Virus record (IMG/VR): IMGVR_UViG_2563367002_000003
Direction: 5' to 3' (one strand)
Source of the DNA: a virus
Lineage: Duplodnaviria; Heunggongvirae; Uroviricota; Caudoviricetes
DNA: 52,323 bases
Shown one piece after another: positions 3,143 through 51,432 of the stretch. Position 1 is the first letter of the stretch; the number at the start of each line of letters is the position of its first letter. Below the pieces are notes generated by a model. That model searched no databases. It had not been told where the DNA came from and saw nothing but the letters and a program-made list of their open reading frames with translations. The position numbers and the translations under genes were made by a program.

Positions 3143-3548
3143 TAACATAGTAGGAAAAATAACACAGATAACACCACTGGTGCCATTTTGATAAGGCACC
3201 AATCAACTAAAGAGAAGAACTATTTTCAATATTACATTCTTTAAAATGTCATCCAAAGCTTCGCTATTTGAATAATGAAGAAGAAAAATGCTCTCAAGCC
3301 AGCTATAGCTTAAAACAAAGTACGCACTCTTGGGAGTTAAAGTCCCGAATCCCGGTACTTAAGTTGATAACTATTCTCAAATAAAAATAATAAAGTGTTA
3401 TTGTATATATTCTGTAGCACTACAATTTTTATACGTAAAAACATCAAGTGTTAGTTATTTTAAAAAATATAAACTTTAAGTATTGACTTGCACACAAAAT
3501 ATAGTATCTACTTAAATGTATAACTAAAAAAATAAAGGAGTAAATACC

Positions 3549-10060: not shown

Positions 10061-11340
10061 TCACTGGCCAGACAGCGATGCCAGCATGAAATAATGCAGC
10101 TCATCATTCCTTACAGACATTATTTCACCAGCCTCCCTGACCAGCTTGCGCTCTCCGGTATCGTATTCTTCCATTGTAAGGAGTCCGTCAGGACCAAGCT
10201 CCATACGAGTCCCGTAAACCACTTCATATTCCGCCGGATATTCATCACGACACAAAATACCGTAATCAAAAGCGTCCAGCCCTTCCTCAGAGAAGACCTT
10301 CTGTACGTCCTGAGCAATCACTCCTACATGCCATCTGGCTGCGTTCCCTTTGCTGGACACTGCATCTCTGAAACGGAACCGACAGATATACCCGAGCAGC
10401 TTTCTGGCAACCCTTTTTTCTGCATCCGACAGAATTGTTTCGTCCTGTTTATGAGTCCGGTCTGATGTACTGATACTTCCCGTAGCTGAATAAACCTGTG
10501 CGGGTCGCCATGAGGCATAACCGATCGAATACGTATTATCTGTATAAGGGCGGAGATTTCCTGATGAATCTATGCGCCATCTCTTTTCTCCTCCTGTGGC
10601 ATTTGCATCCTGATTCGTTGCAAAATCAATCACTGTCGCTGACCTGAACACAGATGAACCACCGCCAATTACCAGCGTGTTATTCCCCTCTGATGCCTGT
10701 TGGTCAACTACCAGTATTTTATCCTGATTTTTACCTGAACCACTTTTCGAGGCAGCGATAATACGATTAAACTGATCCTCACCATCGCTCTTTTGTGCGA
10801 TGGTGATAACATTGGACCAGATTGCCTCTCTTTGTCGCTGAAAACCATATTCTCCGCTGTCTGTAGTGACAGCTTTATATTTTATTCCACCTTCAGCTGA
10901 CTCCTGCGTTATATAGAATGTCTGGTTATTAGCATTCTTGATGAACACATAATTGTCAGCAGGAATGTCATTTCCACTCAGATCTTTAATCGGTGTCGTG
11001 GTTGTATGCAGACAAAACCATTTCTGACTCACAGAACGCATATATGCCAGAATTTCAGACAGGGATGTGAATACCGTCCCCAACACCGGGTTTACCAACC
11101 CCTGGGCACTACGGGGAAATGTTCCAATACTGGCATGAGACACATCAAACCCCGTGTACAACCAGGCTGCCTGACGAAAATCAATAGCATCTCTGCCAGT
11201 ACTGAACTCTTTCATCAGAACAATTCCTTTCTGATAAGCCTGTGGTAACCCACGCTCCAGAAAGATATAAAGCGAATATATACTGCCGCCGTCGTCAGAA
11301 ATACAAATTCCTTCGTTCTCAATGCGCGAAGGTGTAAAAC
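10061..11340 (-). pseudogene. tail-fibre gene, C-terminal fragment (S74-type intramolecular chaperone domain), separated from N-terminal part by IS911
   Basis: C-terminal residues SDAEKRVARKLLGYICRFRFRD...WHVGVIAQDVQKV resemble the self-cleaving chaperone domain of tail fibres/endosialidases; track ORF reads through into IS sequence; frame is continuous with 12591-13689 once IS and one TSD copy are removed. Confidence 0.7.
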
Positions 11341-11412
11341 TGAAGTGGTTTACTGAATTTGGCCACCTGAACAGAGGTGATATGCTCACCTCAGAACAAC
11401 ACAGGTGCCATA

Positions 11413-12560
<1,148 letters not shown>

Positions 12561-12590
12561 CTCGGTGGCCAGTTTTTGTTGACCACTTCA

Positions 12591-13689
12591 AACCCTGCCT
12601 GGTAAGCACATCTATCATTTTTTGGGGATGAAGAATGGATTCCTGCTGCTTTACTCCATCCGGAGAAAAGACCTTAACCCCCTGAAACTGGTTAAATCCG
12701 GCTGATGCCCCGGTATTAAAATAGCCACCATAAGAACAGGCAATATAATCGTCTCCCACAGCAATTCCCTGACGTTTTGTGAAGCGTCTTGCATAGCTGT
12801 CTGTGCTTTCCGTGATATATCCGGAATCATGCAACGGTAATGTGAATGTCCCTGTCCGACGAAACTGAAAATCATACACCGCAAATACTGTGCGGGTGAT
12901 CAGGCCTCCCACTTCCGGCGCTGACTGTTCAACCACCCAGCGGTTTTTACGATAGCTGAACTGGTTGTAAACACCGACATCATGTTCATCAATTAACGGC
13001 AATACTGAACCAGAAATTGCCCCATCAAGCGAAAACTGTTTCAGTAATCCATTTTCTCCTGACATGAACAAACGTAATCCACCGTAATCCGTTGTCACCA
13101 CAAGGCCTTCGCTGACAACGCCACGACCTCCATTATCGACATAATAATATCCCTCATATTCGCCGGATGTTGTGTACTGAACTATAACGTTCCGTGTCTG
13201 CTTTGGCTCAACGGTATAACTCAGATAGATTTTTTCTCCTGTCACCACAAATCCCTGTGGATACATATATTCCGCACCAGACTGAGCAGCCAGCACCGTA
13301 TCGTAGTCTGGGAATAATAACGGCAATTCCATTAAGACACTACGGGAATGGTTAGTGTACAGATTGTTCAATGAACCAGCTTTTACATCCTGTAACCCCA
13401 GATTTTCAAGAGCGCGTTCTACCGTGCCATCCGATTTGATATCGCCAAACGGATTTTTGCGGCTTAACAGCAGCGCACGAAGCGCGGTAAGCAGCTGGTC
13501 GTGCCGCGCCTTCTCCAGACTGGCACCGGAGGCCTCCACCACGCTGCAAAGTTCTTCCTGCAACATGTCAAAGTAGTCATCATCCAGATCGGTGGCAGGC
13601 GTGCCGGTCTGGGGGTTACCACGGGTAAAACCGTTCTTACCCGCGCCGAACTTATCCTTCTGCGCGGTTTTCGTGTCTATACGATGCAT
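12591..13689 (-). pseudogene. tail-fibre gene, N-terminal fragment
   Basis: ATG at 13689 ([26 protein letters not shown]...), phage tail-fibre-like N-terminus; ORF runs into the IS911 right end at 12590. Confidence 0.7.
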
Positions 13690-32195: not shown

Positions 32196-32663
32196 TTACT
32201 TCCGACACTGAGTGTCAATATATTCCTGTAACGCTCTCAATGATGCTTGATCTCTGATAATTCCGGATCTGATACCGAGAAGGTTTCGTCCAGCAATTGG
32301 AGAGAGTTCGACGGTGGCATCATTGCCCACGCTGGCGGTGCCGGAGGCTTTTGTTGTGGCTGGCACTGGACATCTGCCTTTGACGAGCACCCTACCACCA
32401 TTATCAAGCTTGCGCCGAAGAGCATCATTTTCAGCTTTCGCATCAGCTAACTCCTTCGTGTATTTAGCATCAAGTGCATCAGCATCACGCTGGCGCTGCT
32501 GCATGTCAGCGATGGTGGCGGTCAGCTGCTTCAGCTCACTGACTTTTTTATCACGCTGTTCTTTGTAGGTGATGGCGTTATCACGGTAATGATTGACCGC
32601 CCACGACAGGCAGACGATGATGCAGATAACCAGAGCATAAATAATCGCGGCGACTCTGCTCAC
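32196..32663 (-). CDS. i-spanin (lambda Rz homologue)
   Basis: close to lambda Rz over the full length ([34 protein letters not shown] ...); GTG start at 32663 overlapping endolysin stop. Confidence 0.8.
32237..32443 (-). CDS. o-spanin (Rz1-like lipoprotein) embedded in the Rz frame
   Basis: 68 aa in +1 frame inside Rz; AAGGAG SD; lipobox VVGC and proline-rich region, as in lambda Rz1. Confidence 0.75.
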
Positions 32664-33193
32664 TGATCTATTCCCCAACAGGCTAATGCGCTTTCTTGGT
32701 CACGACGAATAACCTGTCCATAGCAGTTATTTGAACGTATGCGGCAATCGCGCCCACCATCTTTTATCCACCAGCGAATCGCCTCGCATGCGCCCTTACG
32801 ATCACCAGCATTCAGCCGCTTATAAAACGTCGATGGAAAACACTTACCGGGGCCAATGTTATAGGGACAAAATGACGCGATACCCGCTTTTTGTGGTTCG
32901 GTCAGTGGTACTTTAATATTGCGCTCCACCCATGCCAGCGCCTTATCACGCTCAATGGCGTTGACCTGGTCGCATTTTTCCTTCGACAGTTTCATACCGG
33001 GAAAAACGGGTTTTCCATCCACCATCGTGGCACCCCGACAGATGGTCCAGATGCCGGAACCATCGCGGTATGCCGTTGTGTGGTTACCTTCTTTTTCATC
33101 CAGAAACTGGTCGAGAATATCAGGCGCGGGCGCACCGACGGCAATCAGTGCCAGAACGGCAGCCGACAGGCCGTATCTGATTTTTGCGTTCAT
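32660..33193 (-). CDS. endolysin (phage lysozyme with N-terminal signal-anchor-release segment)
   Basis: 177 aa; N-terminal weakly hydrophobic Gly/Ala-rich segment followed by lysozyme catalytic region. Confidence 0.8.
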
Positions 33194-33256
33194 GGATATT
33201 TATCAGGATTTATCGGTTTCTGCCCACGGACAGGTTTATCTGTTCCGGTCAGTGAC

Positions 33257-33607
33257 TTAAGGTTGTGATTCCGGAGGAGTCTTCAGAGAACCAGTAATTC
33301 TTCCTGGTAGCTTTCCTTTGTAGGTTATCCACACATTCTGCGCCTCTAAAATTACGGGGCGCTTTTCCGGCGACTGCTCATCCCCTTCACATAACCCGGC
33401 AGCAACATCCAGGAAGACCTGTCTGATGCTCCTTCTGGCTGCTGCCTCATAAAACCCCAGCGCGGCACCTTCAACACGGTCCAGCGAGATGTCCAGGTCA
33501 AAAATTTCACCGTCAAAGCGTTTTTTGTCCCGTAACGCTAAAGTTACCGTAACTTTATTCTCAAAATTGCGGATCCCTTTCACAATCAGTTCATAGTTTT
33601 GAGTCAT
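33257..33607 (-). CDS. hypothetical protein inside lysis cassette
   Basis: 116 aa; GGAGAG SD 9 nt upstream of ATG at 33607; inserted between holin and endolysin. Confidence 0.5.
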   Translation of the reverse strand: MTQNYELIVKGIRNFENKVTVTLALRDKKRFDGEIFDLDISLDRVEGAALGFYEAAARRSIRQVFLDVAAGLCEGDEQSPEKRPVILEAQNVWITYKGKLPGRITGSLKTPPESQP

Positions 33608-33611
33608 TGAA

Positions 33612-33827
33612 TTACTCTCCCCGTGCAGCCTTACGACGGTCCTCTCTGATTTTGAAATACAGGTTAGTCAGATATGTCAGGAAGCCCAGAACCAGACTCC
33701 CCAGTACACCAATCGCAGCCCACTGTGACGGACTGACCTGATCAAGCCACTGTAAAAACCAGTAGCCAGCACTGCCTGCGGAGGTGCCGTAGGCAATGCC
33801 CGTTGAAATTTTATCCATGGATTTCAT
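33612..33827 (-). CDS. holin (phage-21 S-type pinholin) with dual-start motif
   Basis: 71 aa from ATG at 33827 ([71 protein letters not shown]), GGAGGTG SD; second Met three codons in gives the classic holin/antiholin pair; track ORF is N-extended. Confidence 0.85.
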
Positions 33828-33996
33828 AGCCTCACCTCCGCAGCGAACGGATGGCGTAGTTATAAGGGGAGCGAAAAAGAAAGAATGCGCGATTGCGCAA
33901 TATGGTAACGTCAGGGTATTATCCACTGGCTGAATAGATCACTTCACGTTTTTTGTTCCTTGCCGCCCGTATCCATATGCGGGCTTTTTTTTGCAT

Positions 33997-34028
33997 GTAA
34001 AAAGGCCCCAACACATGTGCGTGGGGCC
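33997..34028 (-). terminator. rho-independent terminator in late leader (tR'-like)
   Basis: minus-strand hairpin GGCCCCA-(11 nt)-TGGGGCC followed by TTTTT; lies between tRNA cluster and holin; an opposite-polarity terminator-like hairpin sits adjacent at 33962-33992. Confidence 0.5.
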
Positions 34029-34267
34029 TGAGAGTATACATGGTTTCAGTCAACTGCATGGTGCCGGGTGCCTCCCGGTGAATTCAGTACCAGCACCTGA
34101 ATCCGCGATTATCCCATATACCTACTCGCTGATTGCCCCTCCGCACAGGGGGATTCACCATGCCAGTTTCTTTTAACAAACTCCCCGCAAAACAGACAAC
34201 TGTCAACCGTCTGAATTGTGAGACATTTAAAAAAAAGGCCCGCAAAAGCGAGCCGGGAAAAATAAGT

Positions 34268-34344
34268 CTGGCGCGTTGTACTGGATTCGAACCAGTGACC
34301 GATTGCTTAGAAGGCAATTGCTCTGTCCGGTTGAGCTAACAACG
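34268..34344 (-). tRNA. tRNA-Arg (anticodon UCU), phage-encoded
   Basis: 77 nt ending CCA; manual fold gives 7-bp acceptor stem, T-loop GGTTCGAATCC, anticodon loop CTTCTAA; closely resembles host argU. Confidence 0.8.
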
Positions 34345-34357
34345 CAGGGTACAGATA

Positions 34358-34434
34358 ATGGACCGCCATCGAGGACTCGAACCCCGCGCAACCAGCTTCG
34401 AAGGCTGGTGCTCTATCCTGATGAGCTAATGGCG
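34358..34434 (-). tRNA. tRNA-Arg (anticodon UCG), phage-encoded
   Basis: 77 nt ending CCA; perfect 7-bp acceptor stem (C1-G72), D-stem GCTC/GAGC, anticodon loop CTTCGAA, T-loop TTCGAGT. Confidence 0.7.
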
Positions 34435-34441
34435 GTATGTG

Positions 34442-34517
34442 ATGGTGGCCCTTGCTGGATTTGAACCAGCGACCTGGCGATTATGAGTCGCTCGCTCTCA
34501 CCTCTGAGCTAAAGGGC
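34442..34517 (-). tRNA. tRNA with CAU anticodon, ileX-like (tRNA-Ile2 read as AUA after lysidine modification, or Met)
   Basis: 76 nt ending CCA; near-identical to host ileX in acceptor, anticodon (loop CTCATAA) and T arms. Confidence 0.75.
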
Positions 34518-34650
34518 CGGGCGCAGGATAATAACGTTACGAAATCAATGTTGCAAGCATTCAAAAATCACCTGGTTAAAAATCACCCTTAGCTCCTCCA
34601 CCAGCGCATTCACCATGTCTATCCGAGATAAGTGGCACAAAAAAACCCGC

Positions 34651-34672
34651 TTGTGGGCGGGTTTTGTTTGCT
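34651..34672 (-). terminator. terminator-like hairpin downstream of Q-like gene
   Basis: AAACCCGC-TTGTG-GGCGGGTTTT flanked by A-run and T-run; between Q-like stop and first tRNA. Confidence 0.45.
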
Positions 34673-34728
34673 TTTGCCATCACGTACAAAATCGGCAAAA
34701 TATCAGATTTGCATGAAATATATGCCTT

Positions 34729-35418
34729 TCAATCTACTTTTGCAACACTTTGCTTTGAAAATGCCGCCTTTTGTTTTGAACGTGTTCTCATTACAAACAA
34801 TAAAGCCTCACTATCCAGTCGTTGAAAAATGTGTTTCATTGCAACCCAGTGACGAGTAAATGTTTTGGACCAGTTTTTAGTTGTCACTCCCGCCAGTAAT
34901 GCCAGCTCCTGGTATTCATAACCTTCCCCACCAAAAAGTTCTGCTTTTACTGCCTGCGCCGCCAGCCAGATTAATTTTTTCAGGCGTTCCTGCGTTTTCC
35001 CTGCAATTTTTCTGGTACCGGATTGAGTATTAAATTCATTCCACGCCCACTGTGTTATCGCGATCTGATATTCCCAACAAATACTCTCGCCGTAACACCA
35101 CAACAACCAGGCTTTATGATGCTCTTCAAGAGACAGCAAAGCCCGCCGCCATGATGATGTCGAAAACTCAACCGGGCTGACCAGGGCAATTGATGAGCCA
35201 TTCGCCAGTGATTGTTTTCCCGGGATTGGTGGATTATCCCGCGTTATCATTTTTCCAGTCACTTCATCGCGGTACCGGATTTTTTTTCGCCTGTAACGCC
35301 CTGTATCGAACATGGCATTCTCCTGCCAGGCTTCAAGCTGACCTTTTGTTGCCCCACTCAAATCAGCGGTGGCGATAATGAGCTGCTCACGCACAAACTG
35401 TAAATACTGGTTATTCAT
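34729..35418 (-). CDS. putative late-gene antiterminator (Q-like) by position
   Basis: 229 aa from ATG at 35418 (GGAG SD; ATGA overlap with rusA stop); last early gene before tRNAs and lysis genes; sequence family not confirmed. Confidence 0.5.
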   Translation of the reverse strand: MNNQYLQFVREQLIIATADLSGATKGQLEAWQENAMFDTGRYRRKKIRYRDEVTGKMITRDNPPIPGKQSLANGSSIALVSPVEFSTSSWRRALLSLEEHHKAWLLWCYGESICWEYQIAITQWAWNEFNTQSGTRKIAGKTQERLKKLIWLAAQAVKAELFGGEGYEYQELALLAGVTTKNWSKTFTRHWVAMKHIFQRLDSEALLFVMRTRSKQKAAFSKQSVAKVD

Positions 35419-35780
35419 GCGCACTCCAGTTCTGTGATTTTTATCCCCAGCCGCCCACCAGGAACGAGCTGACCGCGCACAATATTGATTTCATCAAACT
35501 GCTCGTCGTCTATAAGTAGTCCGGCATGCGTCAGCGCATCCAGTGGTGCCTTCAGGATATTGTCCAGGTCACGACGGCGCTTATCCGGTGGCTCTGCAAT
35601 AATCTTTATCGCCAGCCTTCCGGACAGGTTTAATTTCAGCCGCTGCTGGCGAACAATTAGCGCCACATCACGGCGATAACGCTTTCCGGCCTCCGAGATG
35701 AAATACGTATTGCCATGACGTCGCCAGTAGGTATTCACCGTCGGCGGGTAAGGCAAAACAAATTCTATGCGTTCAGTCAT
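35415..35780 (-). CDS. rusA: Holliday-junction resolvase RusA
   Basis: 121 aa (MTERIEFVLPYPPTVNTYWRR ... RRDLDNILKAPLDAL ...), characteristic RusA motifs. Confidence 0.85.
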   Translation of the reverse strand: MTERIEFVLPYPPTVNTYWRRHGNTYFISEAGKRYRRDVALIVRQQRLKLNLSGRLAIKIIAEPPDKRRRDLDNILKAPLDALTHAGLLIDDEQFDEINIVRGQLVPGGRLGIKITELECA

Positions 35781-36836
35781 TCATGCTTTCCACTTCAGGA
35801 CACCCGAATTTCTCGCGTGCATTAAAAAACGAATCAGCAACAACAGCTGGCTGCCGTGTTTTTCTTCAAAATCTTTTACCCCGGCGTGCAGTTCGTTATG
35901 ACATTTACGGCACAGCGGAATAACAAACAAATCATCAGCCTTTGTTCCCATCCCTCCCAGTCCATGACCAATGATGTGATGCGGATCATCTGCCTGATTA
36001 CCGCACGTCATGCATTTCTGCGTTTTTACCCAGCGCGTGTATACAGGCATCTCTTCCCGTTGTGGTTTCTGGCGCTGGAGATACTGAGCCGGTGACTCCG
36101 GATCAACAGCAATGCTGACCACCGTCTTTTCCTGTGGCGGGTTTTGCTGGTGGGCGTGAGGCAGCGGCGCAAGATTTTTTGTGCGCTGCTTCAGTATGCT
36201 GGTGGCGGTCTGCTCTCCCGGTACGATGTCGCTTTCACGGTACATTGAACGGATTTTTTCCGCACGCAACCCCAGCGAACGACGTAATACCGCTTCCGGT
36301 AGCGCGTCCGCCACCTGATTGCGGACCGCCCACCAGGATAATTCAGCCAGAGATAATTCACGCTCCTGCGTACCGCTTATTGCGTGACCGATGACGTCAA
36401 TCATCCATGCTGACAGGTTTTGATGAGCAAGTTGCTCGAGTGATTCGGATGTCTGGTCACGCAGCTGGTTGTCGCAGTGCCAGCACAACACCATTGCGCC
36501 GGTACCATAACGGTGAATGACGGTTTCGCTGTGATGATAATCGCCGTGTGGCCACTGGCAGGATTTAATATGGCGCAACAGCCAGTCAGACAATGCACCA
36601 GCACCACCAGCAGCACGAATCACCCGTGCGTTACTGAAAAACGGCAGCAATGTTTTGTCTTCCACCAGCGGCTGGCGAGCGGCAGGAACGACCCCGGACG
36701 GCAGATTACGCATGCTTTTTGGTTCCGGCTCCACCAGTATTCTGCCGTTATGGAATGCTGACATTGATTCACGGCCTGGCTTAACGATAACCAGACCGAG
36801 TTCCGGTACCAGAACAGGTCGAAGTAATACCCGCAC
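35781..36836 (-). CDS. DUF968-type phage protein (YdfU-like) with C-terminal HNH-like zinc motif
   Basis: 351 aa; C-terminal CMTCGNQADDPHHIIGHGLGG ... CRKCHNELH; GTG start abutting upstream stop; Qin-like position before rusA. Confidence 0.7.
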   Translation of the reverse strand: MRVLLRPVLVPELGLVIVKPGRESMSAFHNGRILVEPEPKSMRNLPSGVVPAARQPLVEDKTLLPFFSNARVIRAAGGAGALSDWLLRHIKSCQWPHGDYHHSETVIHRYGTGAMVLCWHCDNQLRDQTSESLEQLAHQNLSAWMIDVIGHAISGTQERELSLAELSWWAVRNQVADALPEAVLRRSLGLRAEKIRSMYRESDIVPGEQTATSILKQRTKNLAPLPHAHQQNPPQEKTVVSIAVDPESPAQYLQRQKPQREEMPVYTRWVKTQKCMTCGNQADDPHHIIGHGLGGMGTKADDLFVIPLCRKCHNELHAGVKDFEEKHGSQLLLLIRFLMHARNSGVLKWKA

Positions 36837-36837
36837 A

Positions 36838-37116
36838 TTACCTCCAGATCCGTTGCTGGAATGTGCGGGACGGACGCGCTGGCCGTTCGGAGTAAGGGAG
36901 CCTGACGGAGATTATCCAGTGACGGTAGTCGAGGCTAAGGGCTTTTTTAACCTCGCATCCGCGCCTGCGGTAACACTGAATGAGCCATTCGGCCTGTTCT
37001 TCAGTGCATGGGGGATGCTGGTACCAGTCAGATTTGAATGCGTGAAAACACCGTCCGCGCCTGCTGGCAAAGACGGCAGAATCATCAGAATTGTATAATT
37101 TGGTATCGTGCGCCAT
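36838..37116 (-). CDS. hypothetical small phage protein
   Basis: 92 aa, Cys/His/Trp-rich (CFHAF ... PPCTEEQAEWLIQCYRRRGC); no clear SD. Confidence 0.4.
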   Translation of the reverse strand: MAHDTKLYNSDDSAVFASRRGRCFHAFKSDWYQHPPCTEEQAEWLIQCYRRRGCEVKKALSLDYRHWIISVRLPYSERPARPSRTFQQRIWR

Positions 37117-37185
37117 CGGTTGTCTCTGCTGGCGCAGCAGGTGCCAGTTGTTCAGGCTGGCCTGTGGATTGTAAACCAGAATACG

Positions 37186-37211
37186 TAAAACAAAAACCCG
37201 CCGAGGCGGGT
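37186..37211 (-). terminator. rho-independent terminator closing the cargo operon
   Basis: minus-strand hairpin CCCGCC-TC-GGCGGG followed by TTTTTGTTTT, 12 nt after the HTH-ImmA stop; near-identical to hairpin at 39057-39077. Confidence 0.55.
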
Positions 37212-37222
37212 ATGAATGAGAA

Positions 37223-38368
37223 TTATTTTTGTTTTATGGTAAATGAAATAACATTGTCAGAATGAATCATATCTGATTCTTTAAATCGTGTAATTGCAGA
37301 TAACTCATTTAAAGGAAGAGCAAAGATATCAGTTAACTCAGTTACCTTTATGATTGAATGCTTATCAAGAAGTAAAAGTAACTTATTAAGTAACTCAGGC
37401 TCTTCTTTTGGGATTGCATCATCTAACGGCTCCCTACGATGGAATGGCGCTAATTGCTTAAATATATAGCTTTTCTGATTATCGCTAATTAACTTAAGGC
37501 TATGACTCCTCATGGCAATACTACCGATAGATGTAATCCAACGTAGTTTTAATCGTTCTAACGCTGATAAATTTGGACTATAAAATTCACGCCCGAAAGT
37601 CGTGGCTGGCATTAAAAAGCTGGAGGCAAAATAATCGGCCTGCAACTCCACTAGGTCGAATAATTCTTTATCATTCAGGTAGTCATCCTCCACTGCCCTA
37701 TGCATAATTAAATGGCCAAGTTCATGAGCAAGACTAAATCGCATGCGAACAGCCGTCTTCGAGCTATCTAACATAATTAAAGGCCGCCCATTATGCCAGA
37801 ACGAAAAGGCATCAACTTTCTCACCAGAAGGTAAATGAGAAACCACGATTCCTTTATTTTCAACAAGTCTAGTTAAATTGAGTATTGGACCATCACCTAA
37901 CCCCCAAAAACGCCTTAATTGGGTGGACATATCCTCAATATCAGATAGAGACAGAACCTCAAAATCAATAATATCGAATTCAGGCAGAACCACATCTGGT
38001 AATTGAGCATATTTTAGACATTCATCCAATATTAATGCCGCCCAACGCCCACGTGTTTTCCCTGTAACTCGAGCCTTTTTGGTCGCAGTTGAACGACTTC
38101 TAAAATGAATCGCCCCCTCCAGAGATGGAGAAGCACTGGAGGCTAAGAAAAATCGTTCTGGAAATCCTAACACCTTGGCTATTGCAGAAAGTGTATCAGC
38201 AGAGGGAGACTTCAACCCCTTCTCAAATGACGAAATAGCTTGTCTTGAAATATTGAGCACTCTGGCAAGTTCAGCCATCGTCAACCCTTTTGCCTCTCTT
38301 GCCTCCTCAAGGCGACGAGGATTAAACGATTTATCAGTAAATGGTGTTTGTGCGATATTCATGCTCAT
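37223..38368 (-). CDS. fused HTH-XRE DNA-binding / ImmA-IrrE-type zinc metallopeptidase regulator
   Basis: 381 aa; N-terminal HTH (LTMAELARVLNISRQAISSFEKG); HEXXH motif HELGHLIMH near aa 215; AT-rich; ATGA overlap with upstream gene. Confidence 0.75.
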   Translation of the reverse strand: MSMNIAQTPFTDKSFNPRRLEEAREAKGLTMAELARVLNISRQAISSFEKGLKSPSADTLSAIAKVLGFPERFFLASSASPSLEGAIHFRSRSTATKKARVTGKTRGRWAALILDECLKYAQLPDVVLPEFDIIDFEVLSLSDIEDMSTQLRRFWGLGDGPILNLTRLVENKGIVVSHLPSGEKVDAFSFWHNGRPLIMLDSSKTAVRMRFSLAHELGHLIMHRAVEDDYLNDKELFDLVELQADYFASSFLMPATTFGREFYSPNLSALERLKLRWITSIGSIAMRSHSLKLISDNQKSYIFKQLAPFHRREPLDDAIPKEEPELLNKLLLLLDKHSIIKVTELTDIFALPLNELSAITRFKESDMIHSDNVISFTIKQK

Positions 38369-38979
38369 GATTGCTGTGATTTAATTATTTGTTCGGTAAG
38401 AATCTTGATTTTATCTTCAATCTCAGAATCCACATTTTCTGCTTCAACTTCTACCATCGTCATAATTGGTAAAGACTCAGTATAAAGAATCCCGTAATTA
38501 TCCGAAGAAGGAACAGTTAAATTCAGTTTGGACAAGTGCTGATTACTGCCATCATGTAACATATAAACATGTCCACCAGACGCTCTCCCATCCAGGGAGT
38601 CGGCATTTTCATCCCCAAAATTCAATTCATAATTTTGATTAGCGTAAACAGCTCTATACAATGCCTGCTTAGGAAGTGGCGCATTACCCGATAAATGATG
38701 TGCCGTCATTTTCCAGTTGTTCGAGTGAATCGCAATGTGTTTACAATTTTTAGCAGCATTGCTACCGACTTCAAAATCCAGCCCCACACGCTTAGCCGCA
38801 TTCTCAAGCAATGCATCGGCATAAAACCAGCGCAAATATGACTGTGCTTGAGCCCAAAAAGAACCAAACTCTTTTGCCTTCATATGCGAATGAAGATAAG
38901 CCTGTGCTAACGCGATCGAAAGCTCTTTGCGGCACTCCTTGTCATATGCTTCTAACAACTGTTGAGATAAATTCTGCAT
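38365..38979 (-). CDS. hypothetical protein, upstream partner of the HTH-ImmA gene
   Basis: 204 aa; AAGGA upstream of ATG at 38979; AT-rich; no family recognised. Confidence 0.6.
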   Translation of the reverse strand: MQNLSQQLLEAYDKECRKELSIALAQAYLHSHMKAKEFGSFWAQAQSYLRWFYADALLENAAKRVGLDFEVGSNAAKNCKHIAIHSNNWKMTAHHLSGNAPLPKQALYRAVYANQNYELNFGDENADSLDGRASGGHVYMLHDGSNQHLSKLNLTVPSSDNYGILYTESLPIMTMVEVEAENVDSEIEDKIKILTEQIIKSQQS

Positions 38980-39056
38980 GACCGTAATATCCTTGTTGTT
39001 TTGGTGTCAACCATATTTCCATTTAACATAGACTTTGTCAACCAGATAGATGCTAG

Positions 39057-39077
39057 AAAAACCCGCCGAAGCGGGTT
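39057..39077 (-). terminator. terminator-like hairpin downstream of hok gene
   Basis: minus-strand ACCCGC-TTCG-GCGGGT followed by TTTTC; between hok and the cargo operon. Confidence 0.45.
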
Positions 39078-39145
39078 AAGCGCGGGTGCATTGAGGATGC
39101 CTGACTCATCAGAGGTGGCGAGGGATTTCTCCCCCGCCAGGTCTC

Positions 39146-39301
39146 TTACTCCTCAGGTTCGTAAGCTGTGAAGACAGCGACCTCCGTCTGGCCGGTTCGG
39201 ATTCGTACCTCGCAGAGGTCTTTCCTCGTTACCAGTGCCGTCACAATGACGGTTAAACAGATGACGATCAGGGCGATTAGCATCGCCTTTTGCTGCTTCA
39301 T
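39146..39301 (-). CDS. hokD: Hok/Gef-family type I toxin (HokD/RelF-like)
   Basis: 51 aa from ATG at 39301: MKQQKAMLIALIVICLTVIVTALVTRKDLCEVRIRTGQTEVAVFTAYEPEE, matching HokD as I recall it; longer in-frame upstream ORF to 39358 is the mok-like leader. Confidence 0.8.
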   Translation of the reverse strand: MKQQKAMLIALIVICLTVIVTALVTRKDLCEVRIRTGQTEVAVFTAYEPEE

Positions 39302-39578
39302 AGCCTGCTTCTCCTTGCCTTTCGGCGCGTAAGAGGCTAACCTAGATTTGCCGTTCATAGATTGAGCCTCAGATTAATGTTAAGCGTCTTGCAGGACGCG
39401 TAAGGTTAACTGGGGCTTTTCTCTATCTGCCTTTGGTGTTCATGCCTGAGACAGATAGCCTCAAGCACCCGCAGCCATTCTACTTAACTCCCGTCACCTC
39501 GCCAATATGAAATCAATCAGAAAGGCGAACCATAAGAGCAATAGCAAAACAATAAGGCCCGCATGGTCGTACAAAGAC

Positions 39579-42377
39579 TCAGGCACCGTGACATTTTTTG
39601 TACTTTATTCCCGAGCCACAGGGGCATTGTTCATTCCGGCCGACCGCACCAAAAACTTCAGTTAATTTAGTCTTTGCTGCTTTATGGGCAAGCTGTACGA
39701 TGTAATTTGATTGATTTTGGATTTCTTGACGCTGTACACCTGTGAGGCCTTCGATATAGGGAGCAAGGCGCTGCATTTCGACATCAGCTGCTTTATGCTG
39801 ACCCGATAGTGCCAATATGACTGCGTACTGGCTTCGAACCTGAATCAGTCGGTGTACTAGACCTGCCTCATTGACAACCGGCAGGACATGTTGCTCCATG
39901 ACTTCCTTGGCACCGTCGTAATCCTTTATGGCAACAAACTCATCCGCCAGATCTTGGCCCACCCTAACCATGGATTCCGGGGCCATGGCCAGATTGTAGA
40001 ACTTCATCGAATGAATACGCAGTAATGGTGACAGTTTTCCCTGCGCATCACGAATTCTGGCCAGCAACTCCAGAGCATCAGCCATATGTTTAAAGTGTTC
40101 CTGCATATTTTCGGAATGATTAATAGTTTTCCATAATGCGTCGGCGTTTTTTCCTATGACATCAGCAGGTGTGATACCAAATAAAGAATAGTACCCTTGT
40201 ATAACATTACAGCTTAATGTTTCAGCATCCTTGAGTTTTTTTAATCTCCAGAGTGCAATGGCATGGTTGTAGTCAAAGATGCGTTTATGTTCTTCATCTG
40301 GGAGTTGGGGGCGGACTTCCTGTGCCAGCTTTTGAACTTCTCGTGCATCATTGCTTTCTGCCGAAAATAACATTCGTTTCATTGCATAGGCCATCTCTTC
40401 TTGATAGCCGAACTTGTGCTCCGCAAGTAAAGCTCCCATGATGTTTAACCTCTGAGCAATGTGGTCGGATATTCCGTCTTTAAGCTCAACGAAAACAAGG
40501 CCATCCAATGCCCAGAATTTATGAACAGGTCCCAATAAGTCCGATGTTGCAGCACGCTCCAAGCTTGCAAGAATGTCGACCGTCACGCCCATCTCATAAA
40601 ACATTTCTTGGCCTGAGAGTTCGATCAACGTCGTGACATCATTGAGCTTAATATAAAGTTGAGTCAACAACGATAACCGTTTTGTATTGCGGGTATTATG
40701 AAGACTTTCAACTAAAAGGTCTTTCAGCGCTAGTAGCGCTTTGTTCGATATACCCTGATCCATCAGTTCCAGATGTTGCAGTCCTAGCCCCCTGACAGCA
40801 TCATGTACCTTCAGGGTCTGGTTTCCATAAATTTCAATAGTGCCAGTAGCGCGCATTTTCCTAATTAAAGAAGCCGCACTGCTTGGTGAAATGTTCAGCG
40901 AATTGATTAGGAGCGTAGAAATCTCTTCGCGACTCAGCCCTACGTCAGAGAGACTGAACAATGCCAGCGCGCTCTGAAGTAGTGATTCAAATCCCTGAAA
41001 TACACGTGACAGAATAATTTCTTGGGCGGTTTCCGCAGTATGGGTTTGTTGCTGGAGTTCAGCACACAGAGCATCGACACTACGCTCATAATCAGAAACG
41101 GCGATTTTTGCGGCGCTCTCTACATACAGGGGAAGACCACCAGTGTAAGCCCGTAGCTGCTCGTATCCCATAGCGGTGGCAAATCCTCCGATATCGTTTA
41201 CAACGACAGCTACCGTATCGAGATTCCATCCCTGCAGGCCCTCGCGCTGTAGCCCCGTCATGACCTCCAGTTCGCGAACGTTTTCGTGAGGCTGGCACAA
41301 CAGCACAAAACGAATATGTGTAGTTGCATTCAGAACATCCCGTAGATTTTCCGCAGGTACACGATGGGCGTTATCCAGAACCAGCACCAAGGTGGTACCC
41401 TGCTCTTTCAGGTAGGTATCAAAACTCCTAAGAGCCTCAAAACCACTGGCACCGGGGAGCAAAATCCTGCGCAAACCGTCTTGGTCACGGGCTGTAAATC
41501 TAGCAGCCATCTCGCGCACCAGCGTACTGGCCAGAGCTGGACCGGGAAGATCACCGGTGTCGTAATAAGCACAAAGTGCAGTGGAGTGTAATGCGGCCTG
41601 TGCGGCCCAAGCTGTCTTGCCTGCACCTGAGAGTCCACAAAGGATACGGATCCGCTCACCAGATGTGAGAGAAGGTTCTTCGTTTTGTGGGCGGTACAGT
41701 GCTGGTGGTGCAGGAAAGTCCTGTAGCTGAACGATCAACTGTTCAAATAGTTCAGTAAGTTCCTCCGTGAAAAACGTATGTTGTCCATTGGTATCGCCTC
41801 CGGTGGCGGCAAGCTGAACCAACCCTGCTAACTTCCAAATCAAGGATTCTGGGGACAATAGTGAAAATTTCAGCTTTTCTGCTTCTGCGATACACCATGT
41901 GGCCGCATCAGCCAGAGTACTCCATGCGGGCGGAAGTGCCGGATGACGTCCAGCTGTCGACTGGGGCCAGACAATAAGAACATCAGAAGGAAGCTTTTTA
42001 TCGTCAATCATCTTCTGAAGCAGCGGTCCAGGCGCCTGGTTTACAATAATCACAAAAGAAGCCACCCCTTCGCGGTTTGCCGAAGTATGCTCATTTCTGA
42101 GCTTTACAAATCGCTCCAGAGCCCCCGACACATCGTTGGGCATAATAGGCTTTGAACGGGTTTTAACCTGAATGTAGAGACGTTCCTGTTTGGATTTCAG
42201 CTCAATATCCTCATCAAGCTCGACAGTTACTGAGTCCATAGCAGCCCTCTGCGCCAAAAGTAAGCAGCCTACAGCGTAAAGATGCTGGTAAAGGAACCCC
42301 CGGTGTACCGCTTCGATACGCACCAACTGCACAGGATCCAGTACGTCCAGATTTTGTTTGTTTTCACTTCCCCACAT
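39579..42377 (-). CDS. STAND-like P-loop NTPase, three-part architecture with C-terminal SEC-C zinc motif; candidate antiviral (Avs-like) protein
   Basis: 932 aa; AAGGA SD 8 nt before ATG at 42377; Walker A GLSGAGKT and Walker B-like LVLVLDNAH; N-terminal ~200 aa with D..E.K-like pattern (VELDEDIELK ... YIQVKT); long helical C-terminal region; ends CPCGSGIKYKKCHGA. Confidence 0.7.
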   Translation of the reverse strand: MWGSENKQNLDVLDPVQLVRIEAVHRGFLYQHLYAVGCLLLAQRAAMDSVTVELDEDIELKSKQERLYIQVKTRSKPIMPNDVSGALERFVKLRNEHTSANREGVASFVIIVNQAPGPLLQKMIDDKKLPSDVLIVWPQSTAGRHPALPPAWSTLADAATWCIAEAEKLKFSLLSPESLIWKLAGLVQLAATGGDTNGQHTFFTEELTELFEQLIVQLQDFPAPPALYRPQNEEPSLTSGERIRILCGLSGAGKTAWAAQAALHSTALCAYYDTGDLPGPALASTLVREMAARFTARDQDGLRRILLPGASGFEALRSFDTYLKEQGTTLVLVLDNAHRVPAENLRDVLNATTHIRFVLLCQPHENVRELEVMTGLQREGLQGWNLDTVAVVVNDIGGFATAMGYEQLRAYTGGLPLYVESAAKIAVSDYERSVDALCAELQQQTHTAETAQEIILSRVFQGFESLLQSALALFSLSDVGLSREEISTLLINSLNISPSSAASLIRKMRATGTIEIYGNQTLKVHDAVRGLGLQHLELMDQGISNKALLALKDLLVESLHNTRNTKRLSLLTQLYIKLNDVTTLIELSGQEMFYEMGVTVDILASLERAATSDLLGPVHKFWALDGLVFVELKDGISDHIAQRLNIMGALLAEHKFGYQEEMAYAMKRMLFSAESNDAREVQKLAQEVRPQLPDEEHKRIFDYNHAIALWRLKKLKDAETLSCNVIQGYYSLFGITPADVIGKNADALWKTINHSENMQEHFKHMADALELLARIRDAQGKLSPLLRIHSMKFYNLAMAPESMVRVGQDLADEFVAIKDYDGAKEVMEQHVLPVVNEAGLVHRLIQVRSQYAVILALSGQHKAADVEMQRLAPYIEGLTGVQRQEIQNQSNYIVQLAHKAAKTKLTEVFGAVGRNEQCPCGSGIKYKKCHGA

Positions 42378-46864: not shown

Positions 46865-46917
46865 TTTCTGGTGACGTTTGGCGGTATCAGTTTTACTCCG
46901 TGACTGCTCTGCCGCCC
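46865..46917 (+). ncRNA. dicF: DicF small regulatory RNA (cell-division inhibitor sRNA)
   Basis: 53-nt TTTCTGGTGACGTTTGGCGGTATCAGTTTTACTCCGTGACTGCTCTGCCGCCC followed by T-run, matching the DicF sequence as I recall it; upstream inverted repeat GGGTTGTCA/TGACAACCC (46803-46840) fits a processing stem; dicB follows. Confidence 0.6.
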
Positions 46918-51342: not shown

Positions 51343-51404
51343 TGGCGGAGAGAGGGGGATTTGAACCCCCGGTGGAGTTGCCCCCACTCCGGTTTTCGAG
51401 ACCG
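51343..51404 (-). repeat. att core repeat (proximal copy, within serU 3' end)
   Basis: 62 bp matching 9271-9332 except for two compensatory substitutions. Confidence 0.8.
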
Positions 51405-51432
51405 GTCCGTTCAGCCGCTCCGGCATCTCTCC
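51343..51432 (-). tRNA. serU: tRNA-Ser (anticodon CGA), serU; 3' portion is the phage-derived att core
   Basis: 90 nt, GGAGAGATGCCGGAGCGGCTGAACGGACCGGTCTCGAAAACCGG ... CCCCCTCTCTCCGCCA; long variable arm; anticodon loop CTCGAAA. Confidence 0.9.

Follow-up and report, generated by a model that had tools for sequence, protein, structure and literature searches.

Results

Location and organization of the locus

A short gene of the Hok/Gef type, on the minus strand of a prophage accessory region, raises the question of whether it belongs to a working type I toxin-antitoxin (TA) locus, is a toxin reading frame left behind in a decaying prophage, or acts together with its neighbors as a larger defense or addiction system. 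We analyzed this gene within a 52,323-nt stretch of viral DNA (IMG/VR record IMGVR_UViG_2563367002_000003), hereafter referred to as the window. Our results indicate that positions 39056-39555 are very probably a complete and autonomous hok/mok/sok type I TA cassette of the hokD/hokW subtype in a Qin-like lambdoid prophage of E. coli. The cassette is self-contained in approximately 0.5 kb and carries the full set of regulatory elements of the hok/sok family.

The surrounding element is a Qin-like lambdoid prophage. Window positions 31000-41794 are 100% identical to DNA of E. coli AHB10, where the genes are annotated in the order ydfABC, cI/cro-like genes, replication genes, DUF977, an NTPase gene, hokD, a pair of genes for 204-aa and 381-aa proteins, DUF968, RusA, Q, tRNAs and lysis genes. 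The cassette is thus located in the accessory region, with the replication genes on one side and the Q antiterminator gene on the other. In the RefSeq annotation of the identical AHB10 DNA, only the hokD coding sequence is present, and mok and Sok are without annotation.

Other RNA genes were also found in the window at 33993-34192 (minus strand), 34269-34518 (minus), 46866-46917 (plus) and 51343-51432 (minus), corresponding respectively to the STnc100 sRNA (140 bits), three clustered tRNAs, DicF (76.7 bits) and tRNA-Ser (cga). The tRNA cluster lies downstream of Q and consists of Arg-tct, Arg-tcg and a tRNA with a CAT anticodon, which ARAGORN assigned to Met and RefSeq to Ile. The tRNA-Ser (cga) gene near the end of the window could mark an integration site.

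The hok and mok reading frames

The hok (hokD) open reading frame encodes 51 aa (39146-39301, minus strand, ATG at 39301), with the sequence MKQQKAMLIALIVICLTVIVTALVTRKDLCEVRIRTGQTEVAVFTAYEPEE. This product is a small (~50 aa) hydrophobic protein that matched the whole of the Pfam HOK_GEF model (PF01848, positions 1-42 of 42; E = 1.2e-23; score 82.9 bits, cut-off 22) and PHROG 251, 'MokW-like host killing' (2.8e-33). WP_000813254.1 (HokD) is the RefSeq protein both of the identical AHB10 DNA and of the K-12 derivative MC1061. The first-pass annotation of this DNA had named the gene a hokD-type member of the Hok/Gef family, and the Pfam match and the HokD accession bear this out. The NCBIfam Hok models scored the 51-aa protein at 48.5 bits, under their curated cut-off of 73, and a PADLOC search with the same protein returned no match.

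The same annotation had noted that a longer in-frame leader resembles the mok arrangement. This leader is a 70-aa frame (39146-39358, minus strand, ATG at 39358), the last 51 codons of which are the nested hok frame, and it has an equivalent in the 70-aa mokW of the Stx2 phage 933W, with 61 of 70 residues identical. Both frames are uninterrupted, and each has a Shine-Dalgarno (SD) sequence of its own. That of hok, AAGGAG (39311-39316, minus), was read from the sequence, and its AGGAG is conserved in our alignment of 29 homologs. That of mok, GAGG (39367-39370, minus), lies 8 nt upstream of the mok ATG at 39358; it is invariant in the same alignment, in which the mok ATG is retained in 28 of the 29 sequences. 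Thus, mok overlaps hok and starts upstream of it, with its own ribosome-binding signal. The translation initiation region of hok is intact, and its disruption, which had been proposed as the sign of an inactive relic, is not the case here.

The Tyr47 codon of hok together with the following G reads UACG (39160-39163, minus), which we take to be the TadA recognition sequence, making this a candidate site for A-to-I editing that would change Tyr to Cys. This UACG is invariant in 29/29 aligned homologs (alignment positions T313-A318). Previous studies reported that TadA editing of hokC, hokD and hokE mRNAs recodes Tyr to a disulfide Cys, for hokD at the equivalent Cys position (PMC12214031, bioRxiv 10.1101/2025.08.07.668861), and that the hokD mRNA of K-12 is edited to only 6% (PMC12214031). 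As a caution on the activity of this copy, full toxicity of Hok may need editing of Tyr47 to Cys.

Regulatory elements and predicted folds of the hok mRNA

The promoter scan found a sigma-70-like hok promoter, TTGGCG-17 nt-TAGAAT (39477-39505, minus strand; 9/12 matches), although by itself the scan was not significant, with 2 sites found against 0.9 expected. The -10 hexamer of this promoter lies 6 nt upstream of G 39470, the nucleotide that aligns to position 1 of the Rfam leader model. From this model position and the onset of conservation at GGGTGCTTGAGG, we placed the 5' end of a predicted full-length hok mRNA of ~414 nt (39057-39470, minus).

The Rfam model RF01794 matched 39296-39470 on the minus strand over its full length, with 106.3 bits (gathering score 59) and E = 3.3e-23, well above what chance would give and indicating that the complete hok leader is present. 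On the hok strand, the first model position aligns to GGGUGCUUGAGG and the last three to the hok AUG. Because the match of this model, named 'sok', is on the same strand as hok and extends from the mRNA 5' end to the hok AUG, it models the leader of the hok mRNA. We therefore dropped the match as evidence for the antitoxin, since a hit on the hok strand is silent on Sok transcription and on the position of the antitoxin gene.

The fold-back elements of hok, which the first-pass annotation had proposed to search for, are all intact on the minus strand. The tac box (GGGUGCUUGAGG, 39459-39470), the 5' translational activator element, is near-invariant in the 29 homologs. The ucb, an anti-SD box with the sequence AAGCCCC, is at 39412-39418, the dcb box AGCCUC at 39333-39338, and the fbi box (CCUCAAUGCACCC), the 3' fold-back inhibitory element, at 39084-39096. 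A hairpin, AACCCGC-UUCG-GCGGGUU, followed by a U-run (39057-39077, minus) forms in the predicted folds and was taken as the hok terminator. A consensus terminator scan flagged neither the hok nor the Sok terminator; it probably missed that of hok because only 4 T remain after the A-U pairs join the stem.

Folding of the hok mRNA (39470-39052) gave a minimum free energy (MFE) of -172 kcal/mol (z = -7.1). In the MFE structure predicted for the full-length RNA, tac pairs with fbi and ucb pairs with the mok SD GAGG, and with ucb over the mok ribosome-binding site this form would be closed. In the MFE structure predicted for a 3'-trimmed RNA (39470-39100), tac pairs with ucb and the GAGG region pairs with dcb; this pairing agrees with helix 1 of the Rfam consensus. 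Hence, the predicted folds contain both the long-range tac/fbi closure and an alternative pairing after trimming, and these predicted closed and open folds are the conformations described for the R1 hok mRNA (PMC9841398). The tac/fbi helix is 94.7% paired across the 29 homologs; most of it does not vary, and a single pair shows a compensatory GC/AU change. The dcb box abuts the -10 hexamer of Sok on the opposite strand, and in R1 the Sok promoter mutation falls within dcb (PMC9841398).

The tip of the Sok-target stem carries a nested hairpin, GCGUCCUGCAAGACGC (39387-39402, hok sense strand), which is a 16-nt insertion relative to the Rfam consensus. In the alignment, this hairpin was found in the hokD, hokW and Kluyvera types, among which its stem varies with compensatory changes, and neither the hokC type nor the Erwinia copies have it.

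The predicted Sok antisense RNA and its promoter

A Sok-like antisense RNA had been expected on the plus strand across roughly 39300-39420, with a promoter that could not be recognized by eye. We placed this promoter from homology to 933W and from published mutagenesis primers rather than from the promoter scan. It consists of a -35 hexamer, TTGCCT (39315-39320), a 17-nt spacer and a -10 hexamer, TAACCT (39338-39343), on the plus strand (39315-39343), and both hexamers and their spacing are identical to those of 933W sokW. The consensus promoter scan did not detect it. Counted by hand, it matches consensus at 7/12 positions, and this weak match is the reason that both the scan and the earlier reading missed it. 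In a promoter-less sokW construct made with primer YO-421, sense TAGGTTA was changed to CCGGCTC, i.e., Sok-strand TAACCT(A) to GAGCCG(G); protection against HokW was lost in this construct and was restored by sokW provided in trans (PMC8621323).

Because the window and 933W align without indels in this region, the misc_RNA annotation of 933W sokW could be transferred, and it maps a predicted Sok RNA of 71 nt to 39350-39420 (plus strand), within the interval first suggested for it. The predicted Sok is encoded in cis, would have its own promoter, and spans the mok start and SD region of the hok mRNA, to which it is complementary. Its predicted fold (-31.1 kcal/mol, z = -4.5) begins with an unpaired 5' tail, continues into a long hairpin and ends with GGGGCUUUU. 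A consensus from 20 non-identical homologs likewise contained the unpaired tail, 13 stem pairs, five of which show compensatory changes, and the conserved GGGGCUUUU U-tract. Within hokD-type cassettes, internal variability peaks at positions 39345-39360, which hold the 5' tail of Sok and the opening codons of mok.

With these elements in place, the range of 39146-39420 originally given for the locus proved to cover both reading frames and the antisense RNA, but to miss the hok promoter and tac on one side (to 39505) and fbi and the terminator on the other (to 39057).

Conservation and distribution of the cassette

A protein-seeded scan of one genome per species yielded 53 loci. BLAST against these loci showed homology to the module, from just upstream of the transcription start through fbi, in Escherichia, Shigella, Kluyvera, Pseudocitrobacter, Erwinia and other genera. 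The structure test was based on the 29-sequence alignment, with homologs from Escherichia, Shigella, Kluyvera, Pseudocitrobacter and Erwinia. When the MFE structure of the window was imposed on these 29 homologs, 86.6% of cells were paired, compared to 37-44% with slid partners, a measure that is favored because the structure came from one of the aligned sequences. Counts of pairs changed on both sides are less biased, and there were 38 of these, compared to 12-18 in the slid controls. The observed covariation score was reached by 0 of 500 shuffles.

The cassette was present at a minimum of 80% of the 581-nt query length in 2606 of 5426 complete E. coli genomes, and full-length copies by the same threshold were found in 74 phage records. 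Up to 10 places per E. coli genome match the hok/sok query.

Relationship to characterized hok/sok systems

The closest characterized relative is mokW/hokW/sokW of the Stx2 phage 933W and the Sakai prophage Sp5, with 92% nucleotide identity over 417 nt and the same layout, in which the 70-aa mokW is in frame with the 51-aa hokW and SokW is a 71-nt antisense RNA. The toxins are identical at 47/51 residues and differ at the C-terminus, which reads FTAYEPEE in the window copy and FVDYESEK in HokW. The predicted Sok differs from SokW at 8 of 71 positions, six of them among the 10 nt that open the 5' tail. Homology to 933W begins at window position 39490, downstream of the hok -35 hexamer (39500-39505). 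The 933W locus lies near the right end of its genome (58.5 of 61.7 kb) and not between DUF977 and DUF968-RusA-Q. It was shown experimentally that hokW-sokW is a type I TA system, in which HokW is toxic and is neutralized by sokW (PMC8621323).

The prototype of the family, hok/sok (parB) of R1, contains the same elements, the same predicted switch from tac/fbi and ucb/SD pairing to tac/ucb and SD/dcb pairing, and a cis-antisense Sok that overlaps the mok initiation region. It differs in its carrier, which is a plasmid for R1 and a prophage here, and in the extra nested hairpin GCGUCCUGCAAGACGC at the tip of the Sok-target stem of the window copy. The Sok RNA of R1 is 64 nt. HokW, a near relative of the window toxin, is only 44% identical to R1 Hok (PMC8621323). 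For R1, differential RNA stability, 3' processing, cleavage of the duplex by RNase III and killing at the membrane were all demonstrated (PMC9841398), and these steps were partly demonstrated for hokW-sokW (PMC8621323).

The chromosomal hokC/mokC/sokC (gef) locus of E. coli is ~74% identical at the nucleotide level across the whole module, shares the landmarks tac, fbi, SD and ATG, and likewise has mok in frame. It lacks the 18-nt nested hairpin, and in the hokC-type Sok the -35 is TTGACC and the -10 region is shorter by 1 nt. In the aligned E. coli copy of hokC type, at ~16 kb on its chromosome, homology stops before fbi.

Proposed mechanism

From homology and the presence of every element, the molecular mechanism of the cassette can be assigned with high confidence, as predicted from its DNA. 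The promoter-like TTGGCG-17-TAGAAT would yield the ~414-nt hok mRNA, which would be closed by tac/fbi and ucb/SD pairing. Removal of the 3' end in silico switches tac to ucb and the mok SD to dcb, giving the predicted open form of the R1 model. From the opposite strand, the sokW-like promoter would yield the 71-nt Sok over the mok start and SD. By the R1 and hokW-sokW literature, Sok would be unstable but constantly made and would pair with the trimmed mRNA; this pairing would block translation of mok, and hence of hok, and cleavage by RNase III would follow. Should transcription of the cassette stop, Sok would decay first. Such a stop could come from prophage induction, from loss of the element, or from shut-off of the host by an infecting phage. 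The stable mRNA pool would then be translated, and the 51-aa Hok would enter the inner membrane and depolarize or kill the cell. For the copy at 39056-39555, we infer hok and Sok transcription, 3' processing and toxicity from these better-studied relatives.

Probable role in the prophage

By analogy with hokW-sokW, the most likely role of the cassette would be activation upon prophage induction, leading to earlier growth arrest and greater phage release. In the only direct experiment on a close homolog, the hokW-sokW locus with its 92% nucleotide identity, mitomycin C treatment caused loss of Sok and RecA-dependent production of HokW; growth arrest occurred ~40 min earlier and phage release was doubled (PMC8621323).

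Characterized TA systems generally serve in mobile-element maintenance and phage defense. A role of Hok in defense was reported, and hok genes were found to be approximately four-fold enriched in prophages (bioRxiv 10.1101/2025.08.07.668861). The cassette described here is, moreover, flanked by two slots that often hold defense or TA genes. These observations would favor abortive infection or phage exclusion, or stabilization of the prophage by post-segregational killing, as the role of the cassette rather than assistance of lysis. The mitomycin C experiment on hokW-sokW speaks for lysis assistance instead, and according to the statements cited in bioRxiv 10.1101/2025.08.07.668861, the chromosomal hokA, hokB and hokC loci do not exhibit post-segregational killing, so an intact structure is no guarantee of a phenotype. 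A second caution from this preprint is that hok is not enriched near defense systems. We therefore consider a defense or stabilization role in place of the induction role possible but rather doubtful. Phage exclusion and prophage stabilization need not exclude the induction role, and they are possible alongside it.

Comparison with the truncated hokD of K-12

The K-12 hokD gene (relF), located downstream of relBE in Qin, encodes the same toxin protein, WP_000813254.1. Its place in the prophage is also the same, upstream of DUF968 and Q. In K-12, Qin is a cryptic prophage, and the prophage surrounding the window copy is Qin-like. The K-12 gene is held to have been inactivated by rearrangement (PMC12214031). 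These similarities, together with the weak consensus match of the Sok promoter, would fit a locus that is likewise an inactive relic, i.e., a toxin frame that persists, with neither functional regulation nor expression, in a prophage undergoing decay. Alignment of the two copies argues strongly against this. The K-12 gene is 97.3% identical across the 259 nt that run from the hok SD through fbi to the terminator, but homology starts only ~15 nt upstream of the hok ATG, and farther upstream (beyond ~39315) the K-12 sequence is the end of relE. Accordingly, K-12 hokD is without the hok promoter, tac, ucb, the Sok target region, the mok SD and start, dcb and the Sok promoter, a loss consistent with the published view of inactivation by rearrangement.

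The window copy is the intact form and retains the ~240 nt of upstream DNA that K-12 hokD lacks, including the promoter, tac, ucb, Sok target, mok start and Sok promoter. All of its elements are intact and match those of the experimentally active hokW-sokW, both of its reading frames are uninterrupted, and the module is kept at 80% or more of the query length in the 2606 genomes noted above. On these grounds we rejected the relic explanation, which is very unlikely for this copy.

Neighboring genes and the mosaic structure of the region

Downstream of hok, two genes on the minus strand that overlap by 4 nt (37223-38979) encode proteins of 204 and 381 aa. The 381-aa protein matched the PADLOC model of RmrA over its full length (5.5e-102) and contains Pfam HTH_3 and Peptidase_M78 (ImmA/IrrE) domains, and the 204-aa frame upstream of it matched RmrT models (7.5e-10, PADLOC). 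The genes at 37223-38979 thus place a predicted HTH-metalloprotease antitoxin beside a putative variable toxin, the arrangement of the RosmerTA (RmrT/RmrA) family (PMC10440598), and on these domain matches the pair is a predicted RosmerTA-type toxin-antitoxin defense pair. RefSeq names its products 'hypothetical protein' and 'helix-turn-helix domain-containing protein'. The same two genes also come after hokD in phage Tritos and E. coli LF82.

Upstream of hok, the minus-strand gene at 39579-42377 encodes a 932-aa protein, of which only the N-terminal 50 to 95 residues matched Cap4_nuclease (5.7e-6) or LmuA (5.7e-7); beyond this short nuclease-like segment lie a P-loop domain (AAA_22/AAA_16), a long helical stretch outside any assigned domain and, at the C-terminus, a SEC-C motif. 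The annotation of the surrounding genes includes neither LmuB nor LmuC. Since the match is confined to the N-terminus and no such partner is annotated nearby, we rejected assignment of the protein to a Lamassu (LmuA) or Cap4 system, and no system named by PADLOC fits it. From its domains, it looks like an uncharacterized nuclease-NTPase defense candidate.

The AHB10 version of the 932-aa gene is split by an ISEc52 insertion. A 1256-bp stretch of the window (11339-12594) is 99.9% identical to this ISEc52-family, IS3-like element, indicating that the IS that splits the AHB10 NTPase gene is present elsewhere in the window.

The first-pass annotation had grouped hok with these neighbors as a cluster of candidate defense or addiction functions. 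The neighbors do look defense-like, from the RmrA and RmrT matches and from the Cap4-nuclease, AAA and SEC-C domains of the 932-aa protein, and all of these genes lie on one strand within 5.2 kb; the parts nevertheless assort independently. The NTPase, hokD and RmrTA were found all together in only 4 of 5426 genomes; in E. coli CB7453 the match is 100% identical over 5155 bp. Pairs lacking the third part were also seen, both the NTPase with hokD and hokD with RmrTA, and the breaks fall at the edges of the cassette: partial genome matches stop at query positions 3319-3322 (window 39056-39059), by the hok terminator, or start at query positions 2823/2843 (window 39555/39535). Elsewhere, the hokD cassette is preceded by relBE, DUF5677, FRG-domain, DUF4209, QueH or DUF551 genes, and followed by rem, a gene for a 130-aa hypothetical protein, or nothing. 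The cassette also has, from the scan and the folds, its own promoter and terminator, and a survey found no enrichment of hok near defense systems (bioRxiv 10.1101/2025.08.07.668861). A joint multi-gene defense or addiction system of hok, the nuclease-NTPase and the RmrT/RmrA-like pair, for instance one in which a sensor NTPase acts through Hok, is thus highly improbable and appears already largely refuted by this genome distribution, on which we rejected it. The rarity of co-occurrence (4/5426) and the breakpoints at the hok edges indicate a mosaic of independent modules rather than an operon or a co-inherited system.

In this mosaic, one variable cargo slot lies on either side of the cassette, giving the arrangement DUF977, cargo A, hokD, cargo B, DUF968, RusA, Q. 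It is conceivable, though on balance unlikely, that the hok/sok cassette serves as a homology anchor between exchangeable cargo slots, while the hypervariable 5' tail of Sok insulates paralogous copies from each other. If the anchor reading is true, recombination at 39056 and at 39535-39555 would shuffle relBE, RosmerTA and nuclease-NTPases between phages, and if the insulation reading is true, the Sok 5' tail (39345-39360) would keep up to ten hok/sok copies per genome from cross-talk. The data are compatible with both, yet they show nothing beyond ordinary lambdoid mosaicism.

Discussion

The hok/sok locus of this prophage is an ordinary, previously described system in a known kind of place. 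It has little discovery value as such, because hok/mok/sok of lambdoid prophages was already annotated in 933W and tested in Sp5. Its practical points lie elsewhere. The hokD of the K-12 reference strain is a truncated form, while the complete cassette is the common form, present in 2606 of 5426 complete genomes. The Rfam model named 'sok' hits the hok-sense strand and so is unusable for placing the antitoxin gene. Finally, with a variable cargo slot on each side, the cassette is a useful landmark for accessory and defense genes in Qin-like prophages.
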